Shown: positions 1 to 33,541 of the stretch, in pieces
Layout of the letters: each line of letters opens with the position of its first letter
Numbering within the stretch: the stretch's first letter is position 1
Source of the DNA: Mobula hypostoma
Lineage: Eukaryota
Assembly (NCBI RefSeq): GCF_963921235.1
Contig: NC_086108.1
Coordinates: forward strand, 32,986,001 to 33,050,000
Direction of reading: 5' to 3'
DNA: 64,000 bases
The notes under the pieces: model-generated
What the model was told of the DNA's origin: nothing
What the model saw: only the letters and a program-made list of their open reading frames with translations
Databases searched by the model: none
Program-made: the position numbers and the translations under genes

Positions 1-562
1 ACATGTCGAGGAACCAACTAGAGAGCAGGCTATTCTAGACTGAGTATTGAGCAATGAGGAAGGGTTAATTAGCAATCTTGTCGTGAGAGGCCCCTTGGGT
101 AAGAGTGACCATAATATGGTGGAATTCTTCATTAAGATGGAGAGTGACATAGTTAATTCAGAAACAAAGGTTCTGAACTTAAAGAGGGGTAACTTTGAAG
201 GTATGAGACGTGAATTAGCTAAGATAGACTGGCAAATGACACTTAAAGGGTTGACGGTGGATATGCAATGGCAAGCATTTAAAGATCGCATGGATGAACT
301 ACAACAATTGTTCATCCCAGTTTGGCAAAAGAATAAATCAAGGAAGGTAGTGCACCTGTGACTGACAAGGGAAATTAGGGATAGTATCAATTCCAAAGAA
401 GAAGCATACAAATTAGCCAGAAAAAGTGGCTCACCTGAGGACTGGGAGAAATTCAGAGTCCAACAGAGGAGGACAAAGGGCTGAATTAGGAAAGGGAAAA
501 AAGATTATGAGAGAAAGCTGGCAGGGAACATAAAAACTGACTGTAAAAGCTTTTATAGATAT

Positions 563-1980
563 GTGAAAAGAAAAAGATTGCTTAAGACAAATGTAGGTCC
601 CCTACAGACAGAAACAGGTGAATTGATTATGGGGAGCAAGGACATGGCAGACCAATTGAATAATTACTTTGGTTCTGTCTTCACTAAGGAGGACATAAAT
701 AATCTTCCGGAAATAGTAGGGGACAGAGGGTCCAGTGAGATGGAGGAACTGAGCGAAATACATGTTAGTAGGGAAGTGGTGTTAGGTAAGTTGAAGGGAT
801 TAAAGGCGGATAAATCCCCAGGGCCAGATGGTCTGCAGACCAGAGTGCTTAAGGAAGTAGCCCAAGAAATAGTGGATGCATTAGTGATAATTTTTCAGAA
901 CTCTTTAGATTCTGGACTGGTTCCTGAGGATTGGAGGGTGGCTAATGTAACCCCGCTTTTTAAAAAAGGAGGGAGAGAGAAACCAGGGAATTATAGACCG
1001 GTTAGCCTAACATTGGTGGTGGGGAAACTGCTAGAGTCAGTTATCAAAAATGTGATAATAGCACATTTGGAAAGCAGTGAAATCATCGGACAAAGTCAGC
1101 ATGGATTTGTGAAAGGAAAATCATGTCTGACGAATCTCATAGAATTTTTTGAGGATGTAACTAGTAGAGTGGATAGGGGAGAACCAGTGGATGTGGTATA
1201 TTTGGATTTTCAAAAGGCTTTTGACAAGGTCCCACACAGGAGATTAGTGTGCAAACTTAAAGCACACGGTATTGGGGGTAAGGTATTGATGTGGATAGAG
1301 AATTGGTTGGCAGACAGGAAGCAAAGAGTGGGAATAAACGGGACCTTTTCAGAATGGCAGGCAGTGACTAGTGGGGTACCGCAAGGCTCAGTGCTGGGAC
1401 CCCAGTTGTTTACAATATATATTAATGACTTGGATGAGGGAATTAAATGCAGCATCTCCAAGTTTGCGGATGACACGAAGCTGGGCGGCAGTGTTAGCTG
1501 TGAGGAGGATGCTAAGAGGATGCAGGGTGACTTGGATAGGTTAGGTGCGTGGGCAAATTCATGGCAGATGCAATTTAATGTAGATAAATGTGAAGTTATC
1601 CACTTTGGTGGCAAAAACAGGAAAACAGATTATTATCTGAATGGTGACCGATTAGGAAAAGGGGAGGTGCAACGAGACCTGGGTGTCATTATACACCAGT
1701 CATTGAAAGTGGGCATGCAGGTACAGATGGCGGTGAAAAAGGCAAATGGTATGCTGGCATTTATAGCAAGAGGATTCGATTACAGGAGCAGTGAGGTACT
1801 ACTGCAGTTGTACAAGGCCTTGGTGAGACCACACCTGGAGTATTGTGTGCAGTTTTGGTCCCCTAATCTGAGGAAAGACATCCTTGCCATAGAGGGAGTA
1901 CAAAGAAGGTTCACCAGATTGATTCCTGGGATGGCAGGACTTTCATATGATGAAAGACTGGATGAACTAGGCTTATACTC
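563..1980 (+). pseudogene. CR1 ORF2 reverse transcriptase domain, interrupted by stops and an insertion
   Basis: RT motifs are intact in ORF 563-2062. The last ~26 aa are read-through into the insert at 1981-2076, and there is an upstream stop at 359-361. Confidence 0.92.
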
Positions 1981-2076
1981 ACAACACACATCAAAGTTGC
2001 TGGTGAATGCAGCAGGCCAGGCAGCATCTGTAGGAAGAGGTGCAGTCGACGTTTCAGGCTGAGACCCTTCGTCATT
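1981..2076 (-). mobile_element. 96-bp Penelope-like terminal repeat fragment with 5'-truncated hammerhead motif
   Basis: Perfect 13-bp TSD TAGGCTTATACTC at 1968-1980 and 2077-2089. Absent from the paralogous CR1 near 15690. Minus strand reads UGACGA-AGGGUCUCAGCCU-GAAA-CGUC-GACUG. Confidence 0.9.
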
Positions 2077-2512
2077 TAGGCTTATACTCGTTGGAATTTA
2101 GAAGATTGAGGGGGGATCTGATGGAAACGTATAAAATCCTAAAGGGATTGGACAGGCTAGATGCAGGAAGATTGTTCCCGATGTTGGGGAAGTCCAGAAT
2201 GAGGGGTCACAGTTTGAGGATAAAGGGGAAGTCTTTTAGGACCAAGATTAGGAAAAACTTCTTCACACAAAGAGTGGTAAATCTGTGGAATTCTCTGCCA
2301 CAGGAAACAGTTGAGGCCAGTTCATTGGCTATATTTAAGAGGAAGTTAGATATGGCCCTTGTGGCTAAAGGGATCAGGGGGTATGGAGGGAAGGCTGGTA
2401 CAGGGTTCTGAGTTGGATGATCAGCCATGATCATACTGAATGGCGGTGCAGGCTCGAAGGGCCGAATGGCCTACTCCTGCACCTATTTTCTATGTTTCTA
2501 TGTTTCTATGTT

Positions 2513-11130: not shown

Positions 11131-11909
11131 ATTAGATTAGATTCAACTTTATTGTCATTGTGCTGAGTACAGATACAAAGCCAATGAAATGCAGTTAGCG
11201 TCTAACCAGGAATGCAAAAAATAGTCTTATTTACAGAATAACTGTGAATAAAAAGTAGTGCTACAGCACACAAATATAGAAGTACTAAGACAATACAATA
11301 TAGATGCAATACTGCTTAGTGCTGTGATGAGAGTTTCAGCAGGGTCACAGCCTCAGGGAAGAAGCTCTTCCTGTGCCTGCTGGTGCAGGAGCGGAGGCTC
11401 CTGTAGTGCCTACTGGATGGGAGGAGAGTAAAAAGTCCATGGTTAGGGTGAGATGCATCCTTGATAATGCTTTTCACCCTGCCCAGGCAGCGTTTATGGT
11501 CGATGTTCTCAATGGTGGGCAATTGGGTGCCGATAATCCACTGGGCAGTTTTCACCACCCACTGGAGTGCTTTGCGGTCCGATACGGGACAATTGCCATA
11601 CCACACTGAGATACAGTTGGTGAGTATGCTCTCAATGGTACAGCAGTAAAAGTCCATCAGTATCCTGCAACAGAGGTGAGCTCTCTTGATGCTCCACAGG
11701 AAATAAAGGCACTGTTGCACCTTTTTGATCAGGATGGAGGAGTTCAGGGACCAGGTGAGATCCTTGGAAGTGTGGACACCAAGGAATTTGAAGCTTGATA
11801 CACGCGCCACTACAGCTCCGTTAAAGTAGATGGGGACGTGAGTGTGGCTCCTAGTATGCCTGAAGTCCACAATGATCCCCTTGGTCTTCTGGGTGTTAAG
11901 GACCAGGTT
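11131..11909 (-). mobile_element. Rex1/Babar LINE, 5'-truncated
   Basis: ORF 11316-11870 (FKFLGVH, IESILTNCISVWYG, HPNHGLFTLLPS). (ATTAG)n tail. TSD AACATTAT at 11123-11130 and 11910-11917. Confidence 0.92.
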
Positions 11910-12115
11910 AACATTATCGTGCCTGCCTCAACCACTTCCTCTGGCAATTCCTTTCATAAATGGACCACCCACTGGGAAGAAAAAGTTGCCCCTCAGGATC
12001 CTATTAAAACTCTCCCTTCTCATCTTAAACCAGTGCTCTCTAATTCTTGACTTCCCAACCCTGGGGGAAAATAAAGATGGCGCACATCCACCCGATAGGA
12101 AGGGTGAAAGATTTT

Positions 12116-12224
12116 AACGACTGTACTGTGACTACACATTGGCTTATCTGTCCATGGTGCTCTTGCTCCATTTGAAACAACTGTACTGTGACTACACATT
12201 GGCTTATCTGTCCTATGGTGCTCT
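12116..12224. repeat. ~60-bp tandem duplication at the CR1 5' junction
   Basis: CTGTACTGTGACTACACATTGGCTTATCTGTCC occurs at 12121 and 12181. Confidence 0.9.
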
Positions 12225-12371
12225 CCCCATAGAGAGGAGTTGCAGGCAGGTGGTCACACCAGGGCCACGGGAGGCAGACAAGTGGTTAGGAGGGGAAGGG
12301 GAAGAGTCAGGTAATAGAGAGTACCCCAGTGGCTGTGCCCCTTAACAATAGGTACTCCTGTTTGAGTACTG

Positions 12372-12977
12372 TTGGGGGGGACAGCTTACCCGGGGGGAAG
12401 CGACGGTGGCCGTGCCTCCGGCACAGAGTCTGGCCCTGTAGCTCAGAAGGGTAGGGCAAGGAAGAGGAGGGCAGTTGTGATAGGGGACTCGATAGTAAGG
12501 GGGTCAGATAGGCGATTCTGTGGACGCAGTTCAGAGACCTGGATGGTAGTTTGCCTCCCTGGTGCCAGGGTCCGGGATATTTCTGATCGTGTCCAAGATA
12601 TCCTGAAGTGGGAAGGTGAGGAGCCAGAGGTCATGGTACATATAGGTACCAATGACATAGGTAGGAAAAGGGATGAGGTCCTGAAAGGAGAATATAGGGA
12701 GCTAGGAAGGGAGTTGAGAAAAAGGACCGCAAAGGTAGTAATCTCGGGATTACTGCCTGTGCCACGCGACAGTGAGAGTAGGAATGCGATGAGGTGGAGG
12801 ATAAATGCGTGGCTGAGGGATTGGAGCAGGGGGCAGGGATTCAAGTTTTTGGATCATTGGGACCTCTTTTGGCGCAGGCGTGACCTGTACAAAAAGGACG
12901 GGTTACACTTGAATCCTAGGGGGACCAATATCCTAGCAGGGAGATTAGCGAGGGCTACTGAGGTGACTTTAAACTAG
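12372..12977 (+). pseudogene. CR1 ORF1 C-terminal SGNH/GDSL esterase domain
   Basis: Blocks VIGDSIVRG, LPGARV, HIGTNDI and DGLHLN. The N-terminus is truncated or frameshifted. Confidence 0.9.
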
Positions 12978-15900
12978 AATGGTTGGGGGGTGGGAATCAA
13001 ATTAAAGAGGCTAGGCGTGAGGAGGTTAGTTCACAAAAGGGGGATGGGAACCAGTGCAGAGAGACAGAGGGGTGTAAAGTGAGGGTAGAAGCAAAAAGTA
13101 CTAAGGAGAAAAGTGAAAGTGGCAGGCCAACAAATCCAGGGCAAGCATTAAAAAGGGCCACTTTTCAACATAATTGTACAAGGGCTAAGAGAGTTGTAAA
13201 AGAGCGCCTGAAGGCTTTGTGTGTCAATGCAAGGAGCATTCGTAATAAGGTGGATGAATTGAAAGTGCAGATTGTTATTAATGATTATGATATAGTTGGG
13301 ATCACAGAGACATGGCTCCAGGGTGACCAAGGATGGGAGCTCAACGTTCAGGGATATTCAATATTCAGGAGGGATAGACATGAAGGAAGGGGAGGTGGGG
13401 TGGCGTTGCTGGATAAAGAAGAGATTAACGCAATAGAAAGGAAGGACATAAGCCGGGAAGATATGGAATCGATATGGGTAGAGCTGCGTAACACTAAGGG
13501 GCAGAAGACGCTGGTGGGAGTTGTGTACAGGCCACCTAACAGTAGTAGTGAGGTCGGAGATGGTATTAAACAGGAAATTAGAAATGTGTGCAATAAAGGA
13601 ACAGCAGTTATAATGGGTGACTTCAATCTACATGTAGATTGGGTGAACCAAATTGGTAAAGGTGCTGAGGAAGAGGATTTCTTGGAATGTATGCGGGATG
13701 GTTTTTTGAACCAACATGTCGAGGAACCAACTAGAGAGCAGGCTTTTCTGGACTGGGTTTTGAGCAATGAGGAAGGGTTAATTAGCAATCTTGTCGTGAG
13801 AGGCCCCTTGGGTAAGAGTGACCATAATATGGTGGAATTCTTCATTAAGATGGAGAGTGACATAGTTAATTCAGAAACAAAGGTTCTGAACTTAAAGAAG
13901 GGTAACTTTGAAGATATGAGACGTGAATTAGCTTAGATAAACTGGCAAATGACACTTAAAGGATTGACGGTGGATATGCAATGGCAAGCATTTAAAGGTT
14001 GCATGGATGAACTACAACAATTGTTCATCCCAGTTTGGCAAAAGAATAAATCAAGGAAGGTAGTGCACCCATGGCTGACAAGAGAAATTAAGGATAGTAT
14101 CAATTCCAAAGAAGAAGCATACAAATTAGCCAGAGAAAGTGGCTCACCTGAGGACTGGGAGAAATTCAGAGTTCAGCAGAGGAGGACAAAGGGCTTAATT
14201 AGGAAGGGGAAAAAAGATTATGAGAGAAAACTGGCAGGGAACGTAAAAACTGACTGTAAAAGCTTTTATAGATATGTAAAAAGGAAAATACTGGTAAAGA
14301 CAAATGTAGGTCCCCTACAGACAGAAACAGGTGAATTGATTATGGGGAGCAAGGACATGGCAGACCAATTGAATAATTACTTTGGTTCTGTCTTCACTAA
14401 GGAGGACATAAATAATCTTCCAGAAATAGTAGGGGACAGAGGGTCCAGTGAGATGGAGGAACTGAGCGAAATACATGTTAGTAGGGAAGTGGTGTTAGGT
14501 AAATTGAAGGGATTGAAGGCAGATAAATCCCCAGGGCCAGATGGTCTGCATCCTAGAGTGCTTAAGGAAGTAGCCCAAGAAATAGTGGATGCATTAGTGA
14601 TAATTTTTCCAAACTCGTTAGATTCTGGACTAGTTCCTGAGGATTGGAGGGTGGCCGAATGTAACCCCACTTTTTAAAAAAGGAGGGAGAGAGAAACTGG
14701 GGAATTATAGACCGGTTAGCCTAACATCGGTGGTGGGGAAACTGCTGGAGTCAGTTATCAAAGATGTGTTAACAGCACATTTGGAAAGCAGTGAAATCAT
14801 CGGACAAAGTCAGCATGGATTTGTGAAAGGAAAATCATGTCTGACGAATCTCATAGAATTTTTTGAGGATGTAACTAGTAGAGTGGATAGGGGAGAACCA
14901 GTAGATGTGGTATATTTGGACTTTCAAAAGACTTTTGACAAGGTCCCACACAGGAGATTAGTGTGCAAACTTAAAGCACACGGTATTGGGGGTAAGGTAT
15001 TGATGTGGCTGGAGAATTGGTTAGCAGACAGGAAGCAAAGAGTGGAAATAAACGGGACCTTTTCAGAATGGCAGGCAGTGACTAGTGGGGTACCGCAAGG
15101 CTCAGTACTCGGACCCCAGTTGTTTACAATATATATTAATGACTTGGATGAGGGAATTAAATGCAGCATCTCCAAGTTTGCGGATGACACGAAGCTGGGT
15201 GGCAGTGTTAGCTGTGAGGAGGATGCTAAGAGGATGCAGAGTGACTTGGATAGGTTGGGTGAGTGGGCAAATACATGGCAGATGCAATTTAATGTGGATA
15301 AATGTGAAGTTATCCACTTTGGTGGCAAAAATAGGAAAACAGATTATTATCTGAATGGTGGCCGATTAGGAGAAGGGGAGGTGCAACGAGATCTGGGTGT
15401 CATTATACACCAGTCATTGAAAGTGGGCATGCAGGTACAGCAGGCGGTGAAAAAGGCGAATGGTATGCTGGCATTTATAGTGAGAGGATTCGAGTACAGG
15501 AGCAGGGAGGTACTACTGCAGTTGTACAAGGCCTTGGTGAGACCACATCTGGAGTATTGTGCGCAGTTTTGGTCCCCTAATCTGAGGAAAGACATTCTTG
15601 CCATAGAGGGAGTACAAAGAAGGTTCACCAGATTGATTCCTGGGATGGCAGGACTTTCATATGAAAAAAGACTGGATGAACTGGGCTTGTACTCATTGGA
15701 ATTTAGAAGATAGAGGGGGGATCTGATTGAAACGTATAAAATCCTAAAGAGATTGGACAGGCTAGATGCAGGAAGATTGTTCCCGATGTTGGGGAAGTCC
15801 AGAACAAGGAGCCACAGTTTGAGGATAAAGGGGAAGCCTTTTAGGACCGAGATTAGGAAAAACTTCTTCACACAGAGAGTGGTGAATCTGTGGAATTCTC

Positions 15901-16016
15901 TGCCACAGGAAACAGTTGAGGCCAGTTCATTGGCTATATTTAAGAGGGAGTTAGATATGGCCCTTGTGGCTATGGGGATCAGGGGGTATGGAGGGAAGGC
16001 TGGGGCGGGGTTCTGA
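12968..16016 (+). pseudogene. CR1 ORF2 (AP endonuclease + RT) with few lesions
   Basis: APE motifs NARSIRNK, GITETW, YRPP, MGDFN and SDHN, followed by RT motifs. Stops at 13934-13936 and 15711-15713 and a frameshift near 14655. Confidence 0.93.
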
Positions 16017-16316
16017 GTTGGATGATCAGCCATGATCATAATAAATGGCGGTGCAGGCTCGAAGGGCCGAATGGCCTACTCCTGCACCTATTTTCTATGT
16101 TTCTATGTTTCTATGAAACCTGGAATTCCTTGGAGCCTTGAAAATCCTCCTCTAGTGACGTGACAAATCTGTGATCCTTTTCCCAGAGATGATTGTTCCG
16201 TATTCACCAATGACCTCTAAATATTCACACAGCTGATCTGTGCTCAAACTCCAGTCTGTTCTTTTGGCACCTATTTCATTTGTGCTTGTGAATGAATTAA
16301 CTTGATACTGTCTCAC

Positions 16317-29902: not shown

Positions 29903-32900
29903 AGAAACACAGAAAACCTACAGCACAAAACAGGTCCTTCGGCCCACGAAGCTGTGCTGAACATCTCCTTACCTAAGGTTACCCATAGCCCTCTGTTTTT
30001 CTAAGCTCCATGTACCTGTCCAGGAGTCTTTTTAAAGACCCTATCGTAATTGCCTCCAGCACCGAGGCCGACAGCCTATTCCACGCACTCACCACTCTCT
30101 GCATAAAAAACTTACCCCGACACCGCCTCTGTACCTACTTCCAAGCACCTTAAAACTGTGCTCCCTCGTGCTAGCCATTTCAGCCCTGGGAAAAAGCCTC
30201 TGACTATCCACATGATCAATGCTTCTCATCATCTTATAGGCCTTTATCAGGTCACCTCTCATTCTCCGTCGCTCCAAGGAGAAAGGGCTGACTTTACTCA
30301 ACCTGTTCTCATGAGGCATGCTCCCCAATCCAGGCAACATCCTTGTAAATCACCTCTGCACCCTTTCTATGGCTTCCATATCCTTCCTGTAGTGAGGTGA
30401 CCAGAACTAAGCACAGTACTCCAAGTGGGGTCTGACCAGGGTCCTATACATCTGCAACATTACCTCTCGGCCCCTAAACTCAATCCCATGATTGCTGAAG
30501 ACCAACACACCATATGCTTTCTTAGCCACAGAGTCAACCTCCGCAGCAGCTTTGAGTGTCCTATGTATTTGGACCCCAAGATCCCTCTGATCCTCCACAC
30601 TGCCAAGAGTCTTAACATTAATATTATATTCTGCCATCATATTTGACCCACCAAAATGAACCACCTCACACTATCCACAACACCTCCAACTTTTGTGTCA
30701 TCAGAAAATTTATTAACTCATCCTTCCATTTCCTCATTCAGGTCATTTATAAAAATCACAAAGAGGAGGGATCCCAGAACAGATCCCTAAGGCACTCCAC
30801 CATGCAGAATATGACCCCTCTACAACCACTCTTTGCCTTCTGTGGGCAAACCAGTTCTGGATCCACAAAGCAATGTCCCCTTTAATCCCATTCCTCCTTA
30901 CCTCCTCAATAAGCCTTGCATGGGGTACCTTGTCAAATGCCTTGTTGAAATCCATATACACTACATCTACTGCTCTGTCTTCATCAATGTGTTTAGTCAC
31001 ATCCTCAAACAATTCAATCAGGCTCATAAGGCACGACCTGCCTTTGACAAAGCCATGCTGACTATTCCCAATCATATTATGCATCTCAAAACGTTCATGA
31101 ATCCTGCCTCTCAGGATCTTCTCCGTCAACTTACCAACCACTGAAGTAAGACTCACTGGTCTATAATTTTCTGGGCTATCTCTACTCCCTTTCTTGAATA
31201 ATGGAACAACATCCGCAACCCTCCAATCCTCTGGAACCTCTCTCGTCCCCATTGATGATGCAAAGACCATCGCCAGGGGCTCAGCAATCTCCTCCCTCAC
31301 CTCCCACAGTAGCCTGGGGTACATCTTGACTGGTCCCGGTGACTTATCCAACTTGATGCTTTCCAAAAGCTCCTGTACATCCTCTTCCTTAACTTCTACA
31401 TGCTCAAGCTTTTCAGTCTGCTGTAAGTCATCCCTACAATCATCAACATCCTTTTCTGTAGTGAATACTGAAGCAAAGTATTCATTAAGTACCTCTGCTA
31501 TCTCCTCCGGTTCCAAACACACTTTCCCACTGTCACACATGATTTGTCCTATTCTCTCACGTCTTATCCTCTTGCTCTTCACCTACTTGTAGAATGCCTT
31601 GGGATTTTCCTCAATCCTTCTGGCTCTCCTAATTTCTTTGCCAAGCTCTTTCCTGCTAACCTTATAATCTTCAAGATTTCTATCATTACCTAGTTTTTTG
31701 AACCTTTCGTAAGCTCTTCTTTTCTTCGTGACTAGATTTACAACAGCATTTGTACACCACGTTTCCTGTACCCTACCATCTTTTCCCTGTCTCATTGGAA
31801 CGTACCTATTCAGAACTCCACGCAAATATCCCCTGAACATTTGTCACATTTCTTTTGTACGTTTCCCTGAGAACATCTGTTCCCAATTTATGCTTCAAAT
31901 TCCTGCCTGATAGCCTCATATTTCCCCTTACTACAATTAAAGATTTCCCTAATTTGTCTGTTCCTATCCCTTTCGAATGCTATGGTAAAGGGGATAGAAT
32001 TGTGATCACTATGCCAAAATGCTCTCCCACTGAGAGATCTGACACCTGACCAGGTTCATTTCCCAATACCAGTTCAAGTACAGCTTCTCCACTTGTATGC
32101 TTATCTACATATTGTGTCAAGAAACCTTCCTGAACACACCTAACAAACTCCACCCCATCTAAACAATTCGCTCTAGGGAGATACCAATTGAAATTTGGGA
32201 AATTAAAATCTTGCCACCATGACAACTCTGTTATTATTACTCCTTTCCAGAATCTGTCTCCCTATCTGCTCCTTGGTGTCCTGTTACTATTGGGTGGTCT
32301 ATAAAAAACACCCAGTAGAGTTATTTACCCCTTCCTGTTCCTAACTTCCACCCACAGAAACTCCATAGACAACCTCTCCATGACTTCCTCCTTTTCTGCA
32401 GCCGTGATACTATCTCTGATCAACAGTGCCATGCTCCCACCTCTTTTGCCTTCTTCCCTGTCCTTTCTGAAACATCTAAAGCCTGGCACTTGAAGTAACC
32501 ATTCCTGCCCCTGAGCCATACAAATCTCTGTAATGGCCACAACATCATAGCTCCAAGTACTGATCCACGCTCTAAGCTCATCTGTTTGCATTAAAATAGG
32601 CACATCTCAAATCATCGGTCTGAACACGTCCCTTCTCTATCACCTGCCTATCCTCCCTCTCGCATTGTCTCCAAGTTTTCTCTATTTTTGAGTCAATCAC
32701 CTCTTCCTCCATCTCTTCAGTTTGGTTCCCACCCTCCAGCAATTCCAGTGTAAACTCTCCTCAAAAGCCTTAGCAAACTTCACCACCAGGATATTTGCCC
32801 CCTGGGATTCAAGTGCAACCTATCCTTTTTGTACAGGTCACTCCTGCCCCAAAGAGGTCTAGAAATCTGAATCCCTGCCCCCTGTTCCAATCCCTCAGCC

Positions 32901-33541
32901 ACGCATTTATCCTCCACATCACTCTATTCCTATACTCACGGTCACGTGGCTCAGGCAGTAACCCCAAGATCACTACCTTTGCGATTCTGCTTCTCAACTT
33001 CCTTCCTAACTCCCTGCAGTCTGCTTTCATGAACTCCTCCCTTTTCCTACCTATATCGTTGGTACCAAAATGTACCACGACCTCTGGCTGTTCTCCCTCC
33101 CACTGCAGGATATCGTGGACGTGATCAGAAACATCCTGGACCCTGGCACTTGGGAGGCAAACTACCATCCGAATTTCTTTCCTGTGTCTACAGAATCGCC
33201 TATCTGACCCCCTAACTGTAGAGTCCCCTATCACTGCTGCCATCCCCTTCCTTTCCCTACCCTTCTGAGCCAAAAGGCCAGACTCTGTGCCAGAGGCGCA
33301 CCCACTGTTGCTTCCCCATGTAGGCCGTCCCCCCCAACAGTACTCAAACAGGAGTACTTATTGCTACCAGCTACAGGGGTACTCTCAAGCATCTGACTCC
33401 TGCCCTTCCCTCTCTGGACTGTTACCCACTTATCTGTCTCCTGAGGCCCCGGTGTGACTACCTGCCTGTAACTCCTATCTGTCACCTCCTCACTTTCCTG
33501 GATCAGACAAAGGTCACTGGGCTGCAGCGCCAGTTCCCTAA
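29903..33541 (-). mobile_element. Long CR1 LINE subfamily B (ORF1 esterase, APE, RT), decayed
   Basis: ORFs 32809-33273 (VIGDS, HFGTNDI), 32325-32603, 31980-32225, 30743-31582 and 30089-30340. Candidate TSD TGCTT at 29898-29902 and 33542-33546. Confidence 0.94.

Follow-up and report, generated by a model that had tools for sequence, protein, structure and literature searches.

The stretch of DNA that was analysed (64,000 nucleotides; the window) contains, on its forward strand, a 5′-truncated and dead copy of a CR1 LINE (A family, positions 12229–16114), which is 97.3% identical to an open-frame sibling, L256. The 3′ part of ORF1 (12366–12977) encodes an SGNH/GDSL esterase (PF13472, E 1.4e-17) that ends in Thr-Leu-Asn-stop; the upstream part of this ORF is lost or frameshifted in the window copy. 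ORF2 encodes an APE endonuclease and then a reverse transcriptase, or RT (PF03372, PF14529 and PF00078). It begins with a charged, AUG-less linker of 86 codons (12968–13225), for which only the −1 frame is open. The APE domain spans 13205–13933, with the NARS motif at 13226 and a premature stop at 13934, and the remainder of ORF2 with the RT domain spans 13937–16016, with a 1-nt insertion near 14655 and a premature stop at 15711 in this copy. The element has no LTRs, and its 3′ end is made of TTTCTATG short tandem repeats, an ending which we take to be typical of CR1. Assignment to the CR1 group is based on this architecture and on likeness to bird and shark esterases; the SGNH esterase is given as the ORF1 type of vertebrate CR1/L2 elements in the available text of PMC13343379. 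The CR1 esterases of the source genome (G000, 3.5 Gb) are most similar to ray and shark esterases. Elsewhere in the window, the 3′ part of a second A-family copy (1–2510, forward strand) is 95–96% identical to the copy at 12229–16114 and has a gap of about 100 nt near 1981–2079. A direct duplication of 48–49 nt (12116–12163 and 12176–12224, 96% identical) lies just outside the truncated 5′ end of the CR1 copy (12229). On the reverse strand, a C-terminal piece of the ORF2 of another LINE (11316–11927) matches the Pfam domain ALKBH8_N (E 2.3e-9), which suggests that this domain model overlaps retroelement-derived sequence.

ORF1 ends ACT TTA AAC TAG at 12966–12977. Re-reading the sequence confirmed this end and the observation in the initial annotation that it holds the slippery heptamer T TTA AAC (12968–12974) in X XXY YYZ phase, directly followed by the ORF1 stop (TAG, 12975–12977). 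The −1 frame, which is closed upstream by a TGA at 12959–12961, had also been described correctly as leading into APE (PF03372 and PF14529) and is open to 13936. After the stop, a spacer of seven nucleotides, variable in sequence and fixed in length in the alignment of 22 lineage examples described below (12978–12984), leads to a run of G residues (12985–12990), a candidate frameshift stimulator with a putative function. A G-rich tract had been placed 6 nt past the heptamer; it does start there, at 12981, and its conserved core is the run at 12985–12990, 10 nt past the heptamer. The ATG within the spacer (12979), right after the ORF1 stop, is out of frame with ORF2 and gives a reading frame of 8 codons. 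The first in-frame ATG of the −1 frame is at 13463, past NARS and ETW and inside APE as had been stated, but it does not extend to the family: it is private to the window copy and is found in none of the 26 siblings whose full-length junction is unshifted (three others carry indels). In L256, ORF1 runs for 311 residues counted from the first Met, and the frame that starts at the heptamer is open for 1,015 codons. The first Met of its ORF2 is codon 216, directly before the GDFN motif, so that a protein initiated at an AUG would be without most of APE.

The heptamer as such is frequent (8 occurrences of TTTAAAC in the window and 117 in 600 kb of random genome), so a single site proves nothing by itself, and because the window copy is dead, the frameshift claim concerns its family. 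The young members of this family, of which the genome gave 2,687 first-look candidates with the best 40 at 98–99% identity, have the exact heptamer in 29 of 30 copies that are 98–99% identical; copies this similar cannot reveal selection and were not taken as proof. A decayed B-family copy on the reverse strand (32713–33480, 80% identical) indeed has TTTACAC at the homologous site (32748–32754), as reported initially. Its ORF1 stop is also lost (TGG), and TTTAAAC is found in 17 of 19 of its closest relatives.

Diverged relatives were found by protein search and not by the heptamer motif. Two foreign esterases and the B copy were used as queries in the source genome, and GTDB and metagenome contigs were searched with an esterase alignment. 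This gave 214 loci, the young set included, of which the 138 with a downstream APE match were counted; the other 76 were left out because of a contig end, a resemblance to bacterial hydrolases or the lack of an APE match at E 1e-3. Several of the loci left out carry the heptamer, and others, such as L144, L155, L171 and L179, do not. Among the 138 loci with esterase and APE, the heptamer is exact in 118 and one base off in 17, single-base changes that fit neutral decay of dead copies. The remaining three are unalignable: L108 and L187 look bacterial, and L159 is another element, with APE and without the heptamer. The full pattern, heptamer-TRR-N7-G5, has 22,790 matches in the source genome, a count inflated by repeat copies, versus 16 for a reversed control, and 25 of the first 30 genome matches have an esterase upstream and APE downstream. 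By these sequence counts, the full motif is not due to chance. A random 600 kb of the genome holds just three junctions (two exact, one with one change), too few to carry weight. At the protein level, 146 of 240 database homologues, which are related to one another, end in Leu-Asn, among them named proteins from birds, rays, sharks and frogs. Within these related sequences, a residue whose codon is unable to end in T precedes the terminal Leu-Asn in 0 of 146 cases, versus 133 of 730 at the five preceding positions.

Several side observations were made during these searches. A search of viral_contigs returned no relatives of the element. Animal CR1 sequences in bacterial-assembly contigs or bacterial-labelled entries (L091–L102; P0009 and P0035) are host contamination, and pieces of CR1 esterase are merged into ray host gene models in public annotation (P0121, P0025, P0026 and P0129). 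Database proteins in which esterase and APE are in frame (P0121, P0124, P0130 and P0132) resemble indels of single copies or artefacts of gene modelling, and no support was drawn from them.

At the level of lineages, 22 examples were compared, each a single little-decayed natural copy picked by hand after viewing. Nine are from the source genome, eight are bird-like (five at 58–68% and three at 38–43% to named bird proteins), one is amphibian-like (50%) and four are tubeworm-like (60–68% over ~70 residues). The ORF1 stop was located from the D-G-x-H motif, which lies 26, 31 or 32 codons upstream; near this catalytic motif, the median nucleotide identity is 44%. The heptamer is invariant in all 22 examples. 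A stop follows directly (TAG in 16, TAA in 5 and TGA in 1), then seven variable bases, at which the top base is found in 8–17 of the 22, and then five G residues (G5), exactly 10 nt downstream of the heptamer in 22/22. The Leu codon is always TTA, which makes up 40 of 319 Leu codons across these ORF1s, and the Asn codon is always AAC, versus 51 of 124. The codon before this Leu encodes nine residues with ten codons, all of which end in T (background 0.23). As controls, the invariant Leu of block V uses six codons, the Asp of the catalytic motif is split 11/9, and its Gly uses four codons. Past the stop, the Gly codon within the G run is GGG in 22/22, whereas in APE 49 of 168 Gly codons are GGG; the preceding codon ends in G across four residues, and the following one starts with G across four. 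These codon comparisons indicate that conservation of the heptamer and of G5 acts on the bases, beyond coding need. All 18 examples that reach APE have it in the −1 frame, through linkers of 35–86 codons that contain one stop in all in this frame, versus 0–6 and 2–9 for each example in the two remaining frames. Because of the common descent of the lineages, 22/22 does not represent 22 independent events and, given also the selection after viewing, is an upper view; the unselected locus tally and the protein ends agree with it. Alignment of junctions across relatives, the check put forward in the initial annotation, thus finds the heptamer and the −1 register kept in deeply diverged lineages. 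The contrary findings that it had named at the sequence level were not encountered; no in-frame AUG precedes APE in the family.

An ORF1 that ends in T TTA AAC-stop, together with an AUG-less APE-RT frame one base back, makes −1 frameshifting the likely route to ORF2. We infer that the CR1 family very probably uses a programmed −1 ribosomal frameshift to produce an esterase-APE-RT fusion. The possibility of such a fusion, raised initially for the window copy, is thereby supported by the conserved heptamer and register of its family, and the product itself is predicted. In the proposed mechanism, the tRNA-Leu and tRNA-Asn would re-pair from UUA and AAC to UUU and AAA. Most ribosomes would terminate at once, and a minority would continue, with Thr-Leu-Asn followed by Leu-Glu-Trp in the window family. 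The frameshift would set a ratio like that of Gag to Gag-Pol, and the product would be a fusion of ~1,320 residues in which ORF1 (zinc finger, coiled coil and esterase) is joined to APE and RT, made beside free ORF1 protein. In the available part of PMC5009743, U_UUA_AAC is counted among the heptamers on which mammalian ribosomes shift most readily. With less confidence, the G5 run, perhaps together with slow termination at the adjacent stop, may be the stimulator, and it may act as a single-stranded sequence and not as a fold.

ORF2 could instead be made by termination–reinitiation, either dependent on an AUG in the lineages that have one or, as has been proposed for mammalian L1, independent of it, with the heptamer and G5 kept as a reinitiation signal or for another RNA-level function. 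In line with this alternative, the stop always adjoins the heptamer, downstream structure is absent, and L1 ORF2 tolerates loss of its AUG (available parts of PMC1965478 and PMC5009743). In addition, an in-frame AUG is present at ORF2 codon 3 or 4 in 6 of the 22 examples, and in two of these six (L063 and L153) it forms a UAAUG overlap, the arrangement of SART1 (PMC3708506, available part). All six, however, keep the heptamer intact, and the AUG at codon 3 or 4 needs four changes on the esterase tree, so that it is not ancestral and has arisen repeatedly. The remaining 16 examples have no shared AUG or near-cognate start; the UAAUG-type feature, an AUG overlapping or adjoining the stop, is absent from them and from the window family. 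Five examples (L040, L091, L115, L127 and L134) are without a near-cognate codon in the first 15 codons of ORF2. Reinitiation is thus not the shared route unless it is AUG-independent. It also leaves unexplained why a perfect X XXY YYZ site lies in phase and why the −1 register is constant, when any frame would serve. As the general explanation it is considered unlikely, while it may be a second route in some lineages. In the L061–L090 family and in L153, the heptamer is followed by TAATG in the ORF2 frame, so that the slippery site and a reinitiation-type signal coexist; within the main cluster, this applies to 15 of 16 copies that are in frame. A distant esterase ORF (L179/L182) with a weak APE match (E 0.004) lacks the heptamer, and its stop and start overlap as ATGA; this lineage probably uses another route and, like L159 with its APE and no heptamer, counts against the frameshift reading.

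Two further alternatives were weighed. The bases could be fixed by overlapping protein constraint alone, from the Leu-Asn end of ORF1 and from Phe-Lys-Leu in an ORF2 begun at an upstream start. The −1 frame does read Phe-Lys-Leu in 22/22, and dual coding can fix bases. In 16 of the 22 examples, however, a stop closes this frame one to six codons ahead of the heptamer, and in 21 of the 22 the interval from the upstream −1-frame stop to the heptamer holds no ATG, so that Phe-Lys-Leu is unreachable from upstream. Moreover, G5 lies past the ORF1 stop, and yet its synonymous positions are fixed. The closed upstream frame in these examples largely refutes a protein-only constraint, and this explanation is held to be highly improbable. 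Still less credence is given to joining of ORF1 and ORF2 at the RNA level, by splicing to the AG of the stop or by polymerase slippage. The CTAG of 16 of the 22 examples could pass for a 3′ splice site, and a run of 5–6 G residues could slip. On the other hand, the stop is TAA or TGA in the other six, so the AG is not conserved; slippage in a G run that lies past the stop cannot join the frames; and the heptamer has no run of more than three.

For the favoured reading, a −1 frameshift at the heptamer, the nature of a stimulator was considered. Efficient −1 sites usually have downstream structure, and the lack of a conserved one in CR1 weighs against the frameshift reading. In the 22 examples, pseudoknot-free folding found no canonical 3′ RNA structure 5–9 nt downstream: shuffled controls folded as well as the 80 nt that follow the stop (mean z 0.01, with no example under −2). 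A local hairpin was likewise rejected as the stimulator, with no signal in these examples. A G-quadruplex as a general stimulator was also rejected, as it is predicted in only 7 of the 22, including the window copy and not the worm-like ones. The G tract, which had initially been noted at the position expected of a stimulator, is thus conserved as a G5 run at fixed spacing, and in these folds no stem-loop, pseudoknot-like local fold or G-quadruplex is conserved with it. In ray-like families, C-L-P-G codons ~420 nt upstream were tried as a partner for the G run; the codons vary, and the pairing collapses elsewhere (−4.3 kcal/mol in L098, in an unshuffled search). No long-range partner conserved across lineages was found by pseudoknot-free folding of full-length copies from the source genome, and an Rfam search returned no frameshift family and nothing else of relevance. 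A CCCC run 650 nt upstream of the ORF1 stop, in an S-T-P-V motif, is present in 10 of 14 longer copies (L255–L270) and may be coding only. By analogy with known sites, we infer a stimulatory role for the G5 run and the adjacent stop; in pea enation mosaic virus, a stop close to the place of the shift is of importance (PMC5009743, available part).

The proposed CR1 junction can be compared with several known systems, each as described in the available parts of the papers cited. In the Dictyostelium non-LTR elements TRE5-A and TRE3-A, the APE-RT ORF2 is stated to need a −1 frameshift from ORF1 (PMC5911963), as is proposed here for CR1; these elements belong to another LINE clade, and their ORF1 is without an esterase. 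Viral U_UUA_AAC sites such as that of IBV (PMC5009743) are identical to CR1 in heptamer and phase, and at viral sites, including retroviral gag-pol, a structural-type ORF1 is fused to a polymerase ORF, as it would be in CR1. In contrast to the viral sites, CR1 has no detected downstream pseudoknot or stem-loop, its stop is directly adjacent, and it is a non-LTR element. The −2/−1 frameshift of PRRSV nsp2 is stimulated by nsp1beta and PCBP on a C-rich motif (PMC4937337). It resembles CR1 in the lack of obvious structure and in a short homopolymer-rich motif, at a 10-nt spacer in CR1 that is as long as the wild-type spacer of PRRSV, for which 9–11 nt is the optimum. The CR1 motif is G-rich and not C-rich, the heptamers differ, and a protein-stimulated mode would be a candidate for CR1 by analogy. 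SART1, with its UAAUG, and mammalian L1 (PMC3708506, PMC1965478 and PMC5009743) share a bicistronic LINE mRNA with CR1, in which UAAUG is found in 2 of the 22 examples; unlike them, most CR1 lineages have no AUG and have a conserved slippery site with a −1 overlap. In Penelope-like elements, a frameshift that comes with a pseudoknot can set ORF1 apart (PMC8557442), likewise between ORF1 and RT in a non-LTR retroelement. Those elements differ in having a GIY-YIG domain and a telomerase-like class of RT, and in their pseudoknot, of which none was found in CR1.

In the literature covered, mammalian LINE ORF2 expression is ascribed to unusual initiation (PMC5009743, available part), and the translation of ORF2 in two-ORF LINEs is described as unclear (PMC3708506, available part). 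A term search of the main text of a 2026 survey of the CR1 group (PMC13343379) found no frameshifting, the first 300,000 of the 449,034 characters of PMC5009743 do not contain 'CR1', and no CR1 frameshift is reported in the available parts of PMC3905857, PMC11835228, PMC1965478, PMC5006619 and PMC5408684. The literature search as a whole found no report of a CR1 frameshift, with the classic CR1 papers (turtle, esterase/PHD and amphioxus) and the SART1 paper outside its reach. The 1997 turtle CR1 paper reportedly described overlapping ORFs. The −1 frameshift proposed here is a known mechanism, found unreported in CR1, a major LINE group, and the G5 element is atypical and unstructured.

CR1 is very common in animals and is the dominant LINE of many vertebrates. 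In a more far-reaching proposal, held to be less likely than not, the CR1 RT would be produced in a fusion of the Gag-Pol kind by way of a frameshift cassette (U UUA AAC, stop, 7 nt, GGGGG) whose conservation extends to lineages as far apart as worms and birds. In this cassette, G5 would be a structure-free stimulator read by a protein, either a host G-run binder or ORF1p, or by the ribosome entry channel, and would represent a new kind of stimulator in cellular genomes. An unstructured G5 stimulator would interest the recoding field, and a cassette of 22 nt makes the question directly testable. If the frameshift is real, the greater part of the endonuclease is missing from annotations that begin ORF2 at its first Met, and the junction would have to be among the criteria by which CR1 copies are screened for intactness. 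CR1 would then use the retroviral solution, and its ORF2 protein would be an esterase-APE-RT fusion.
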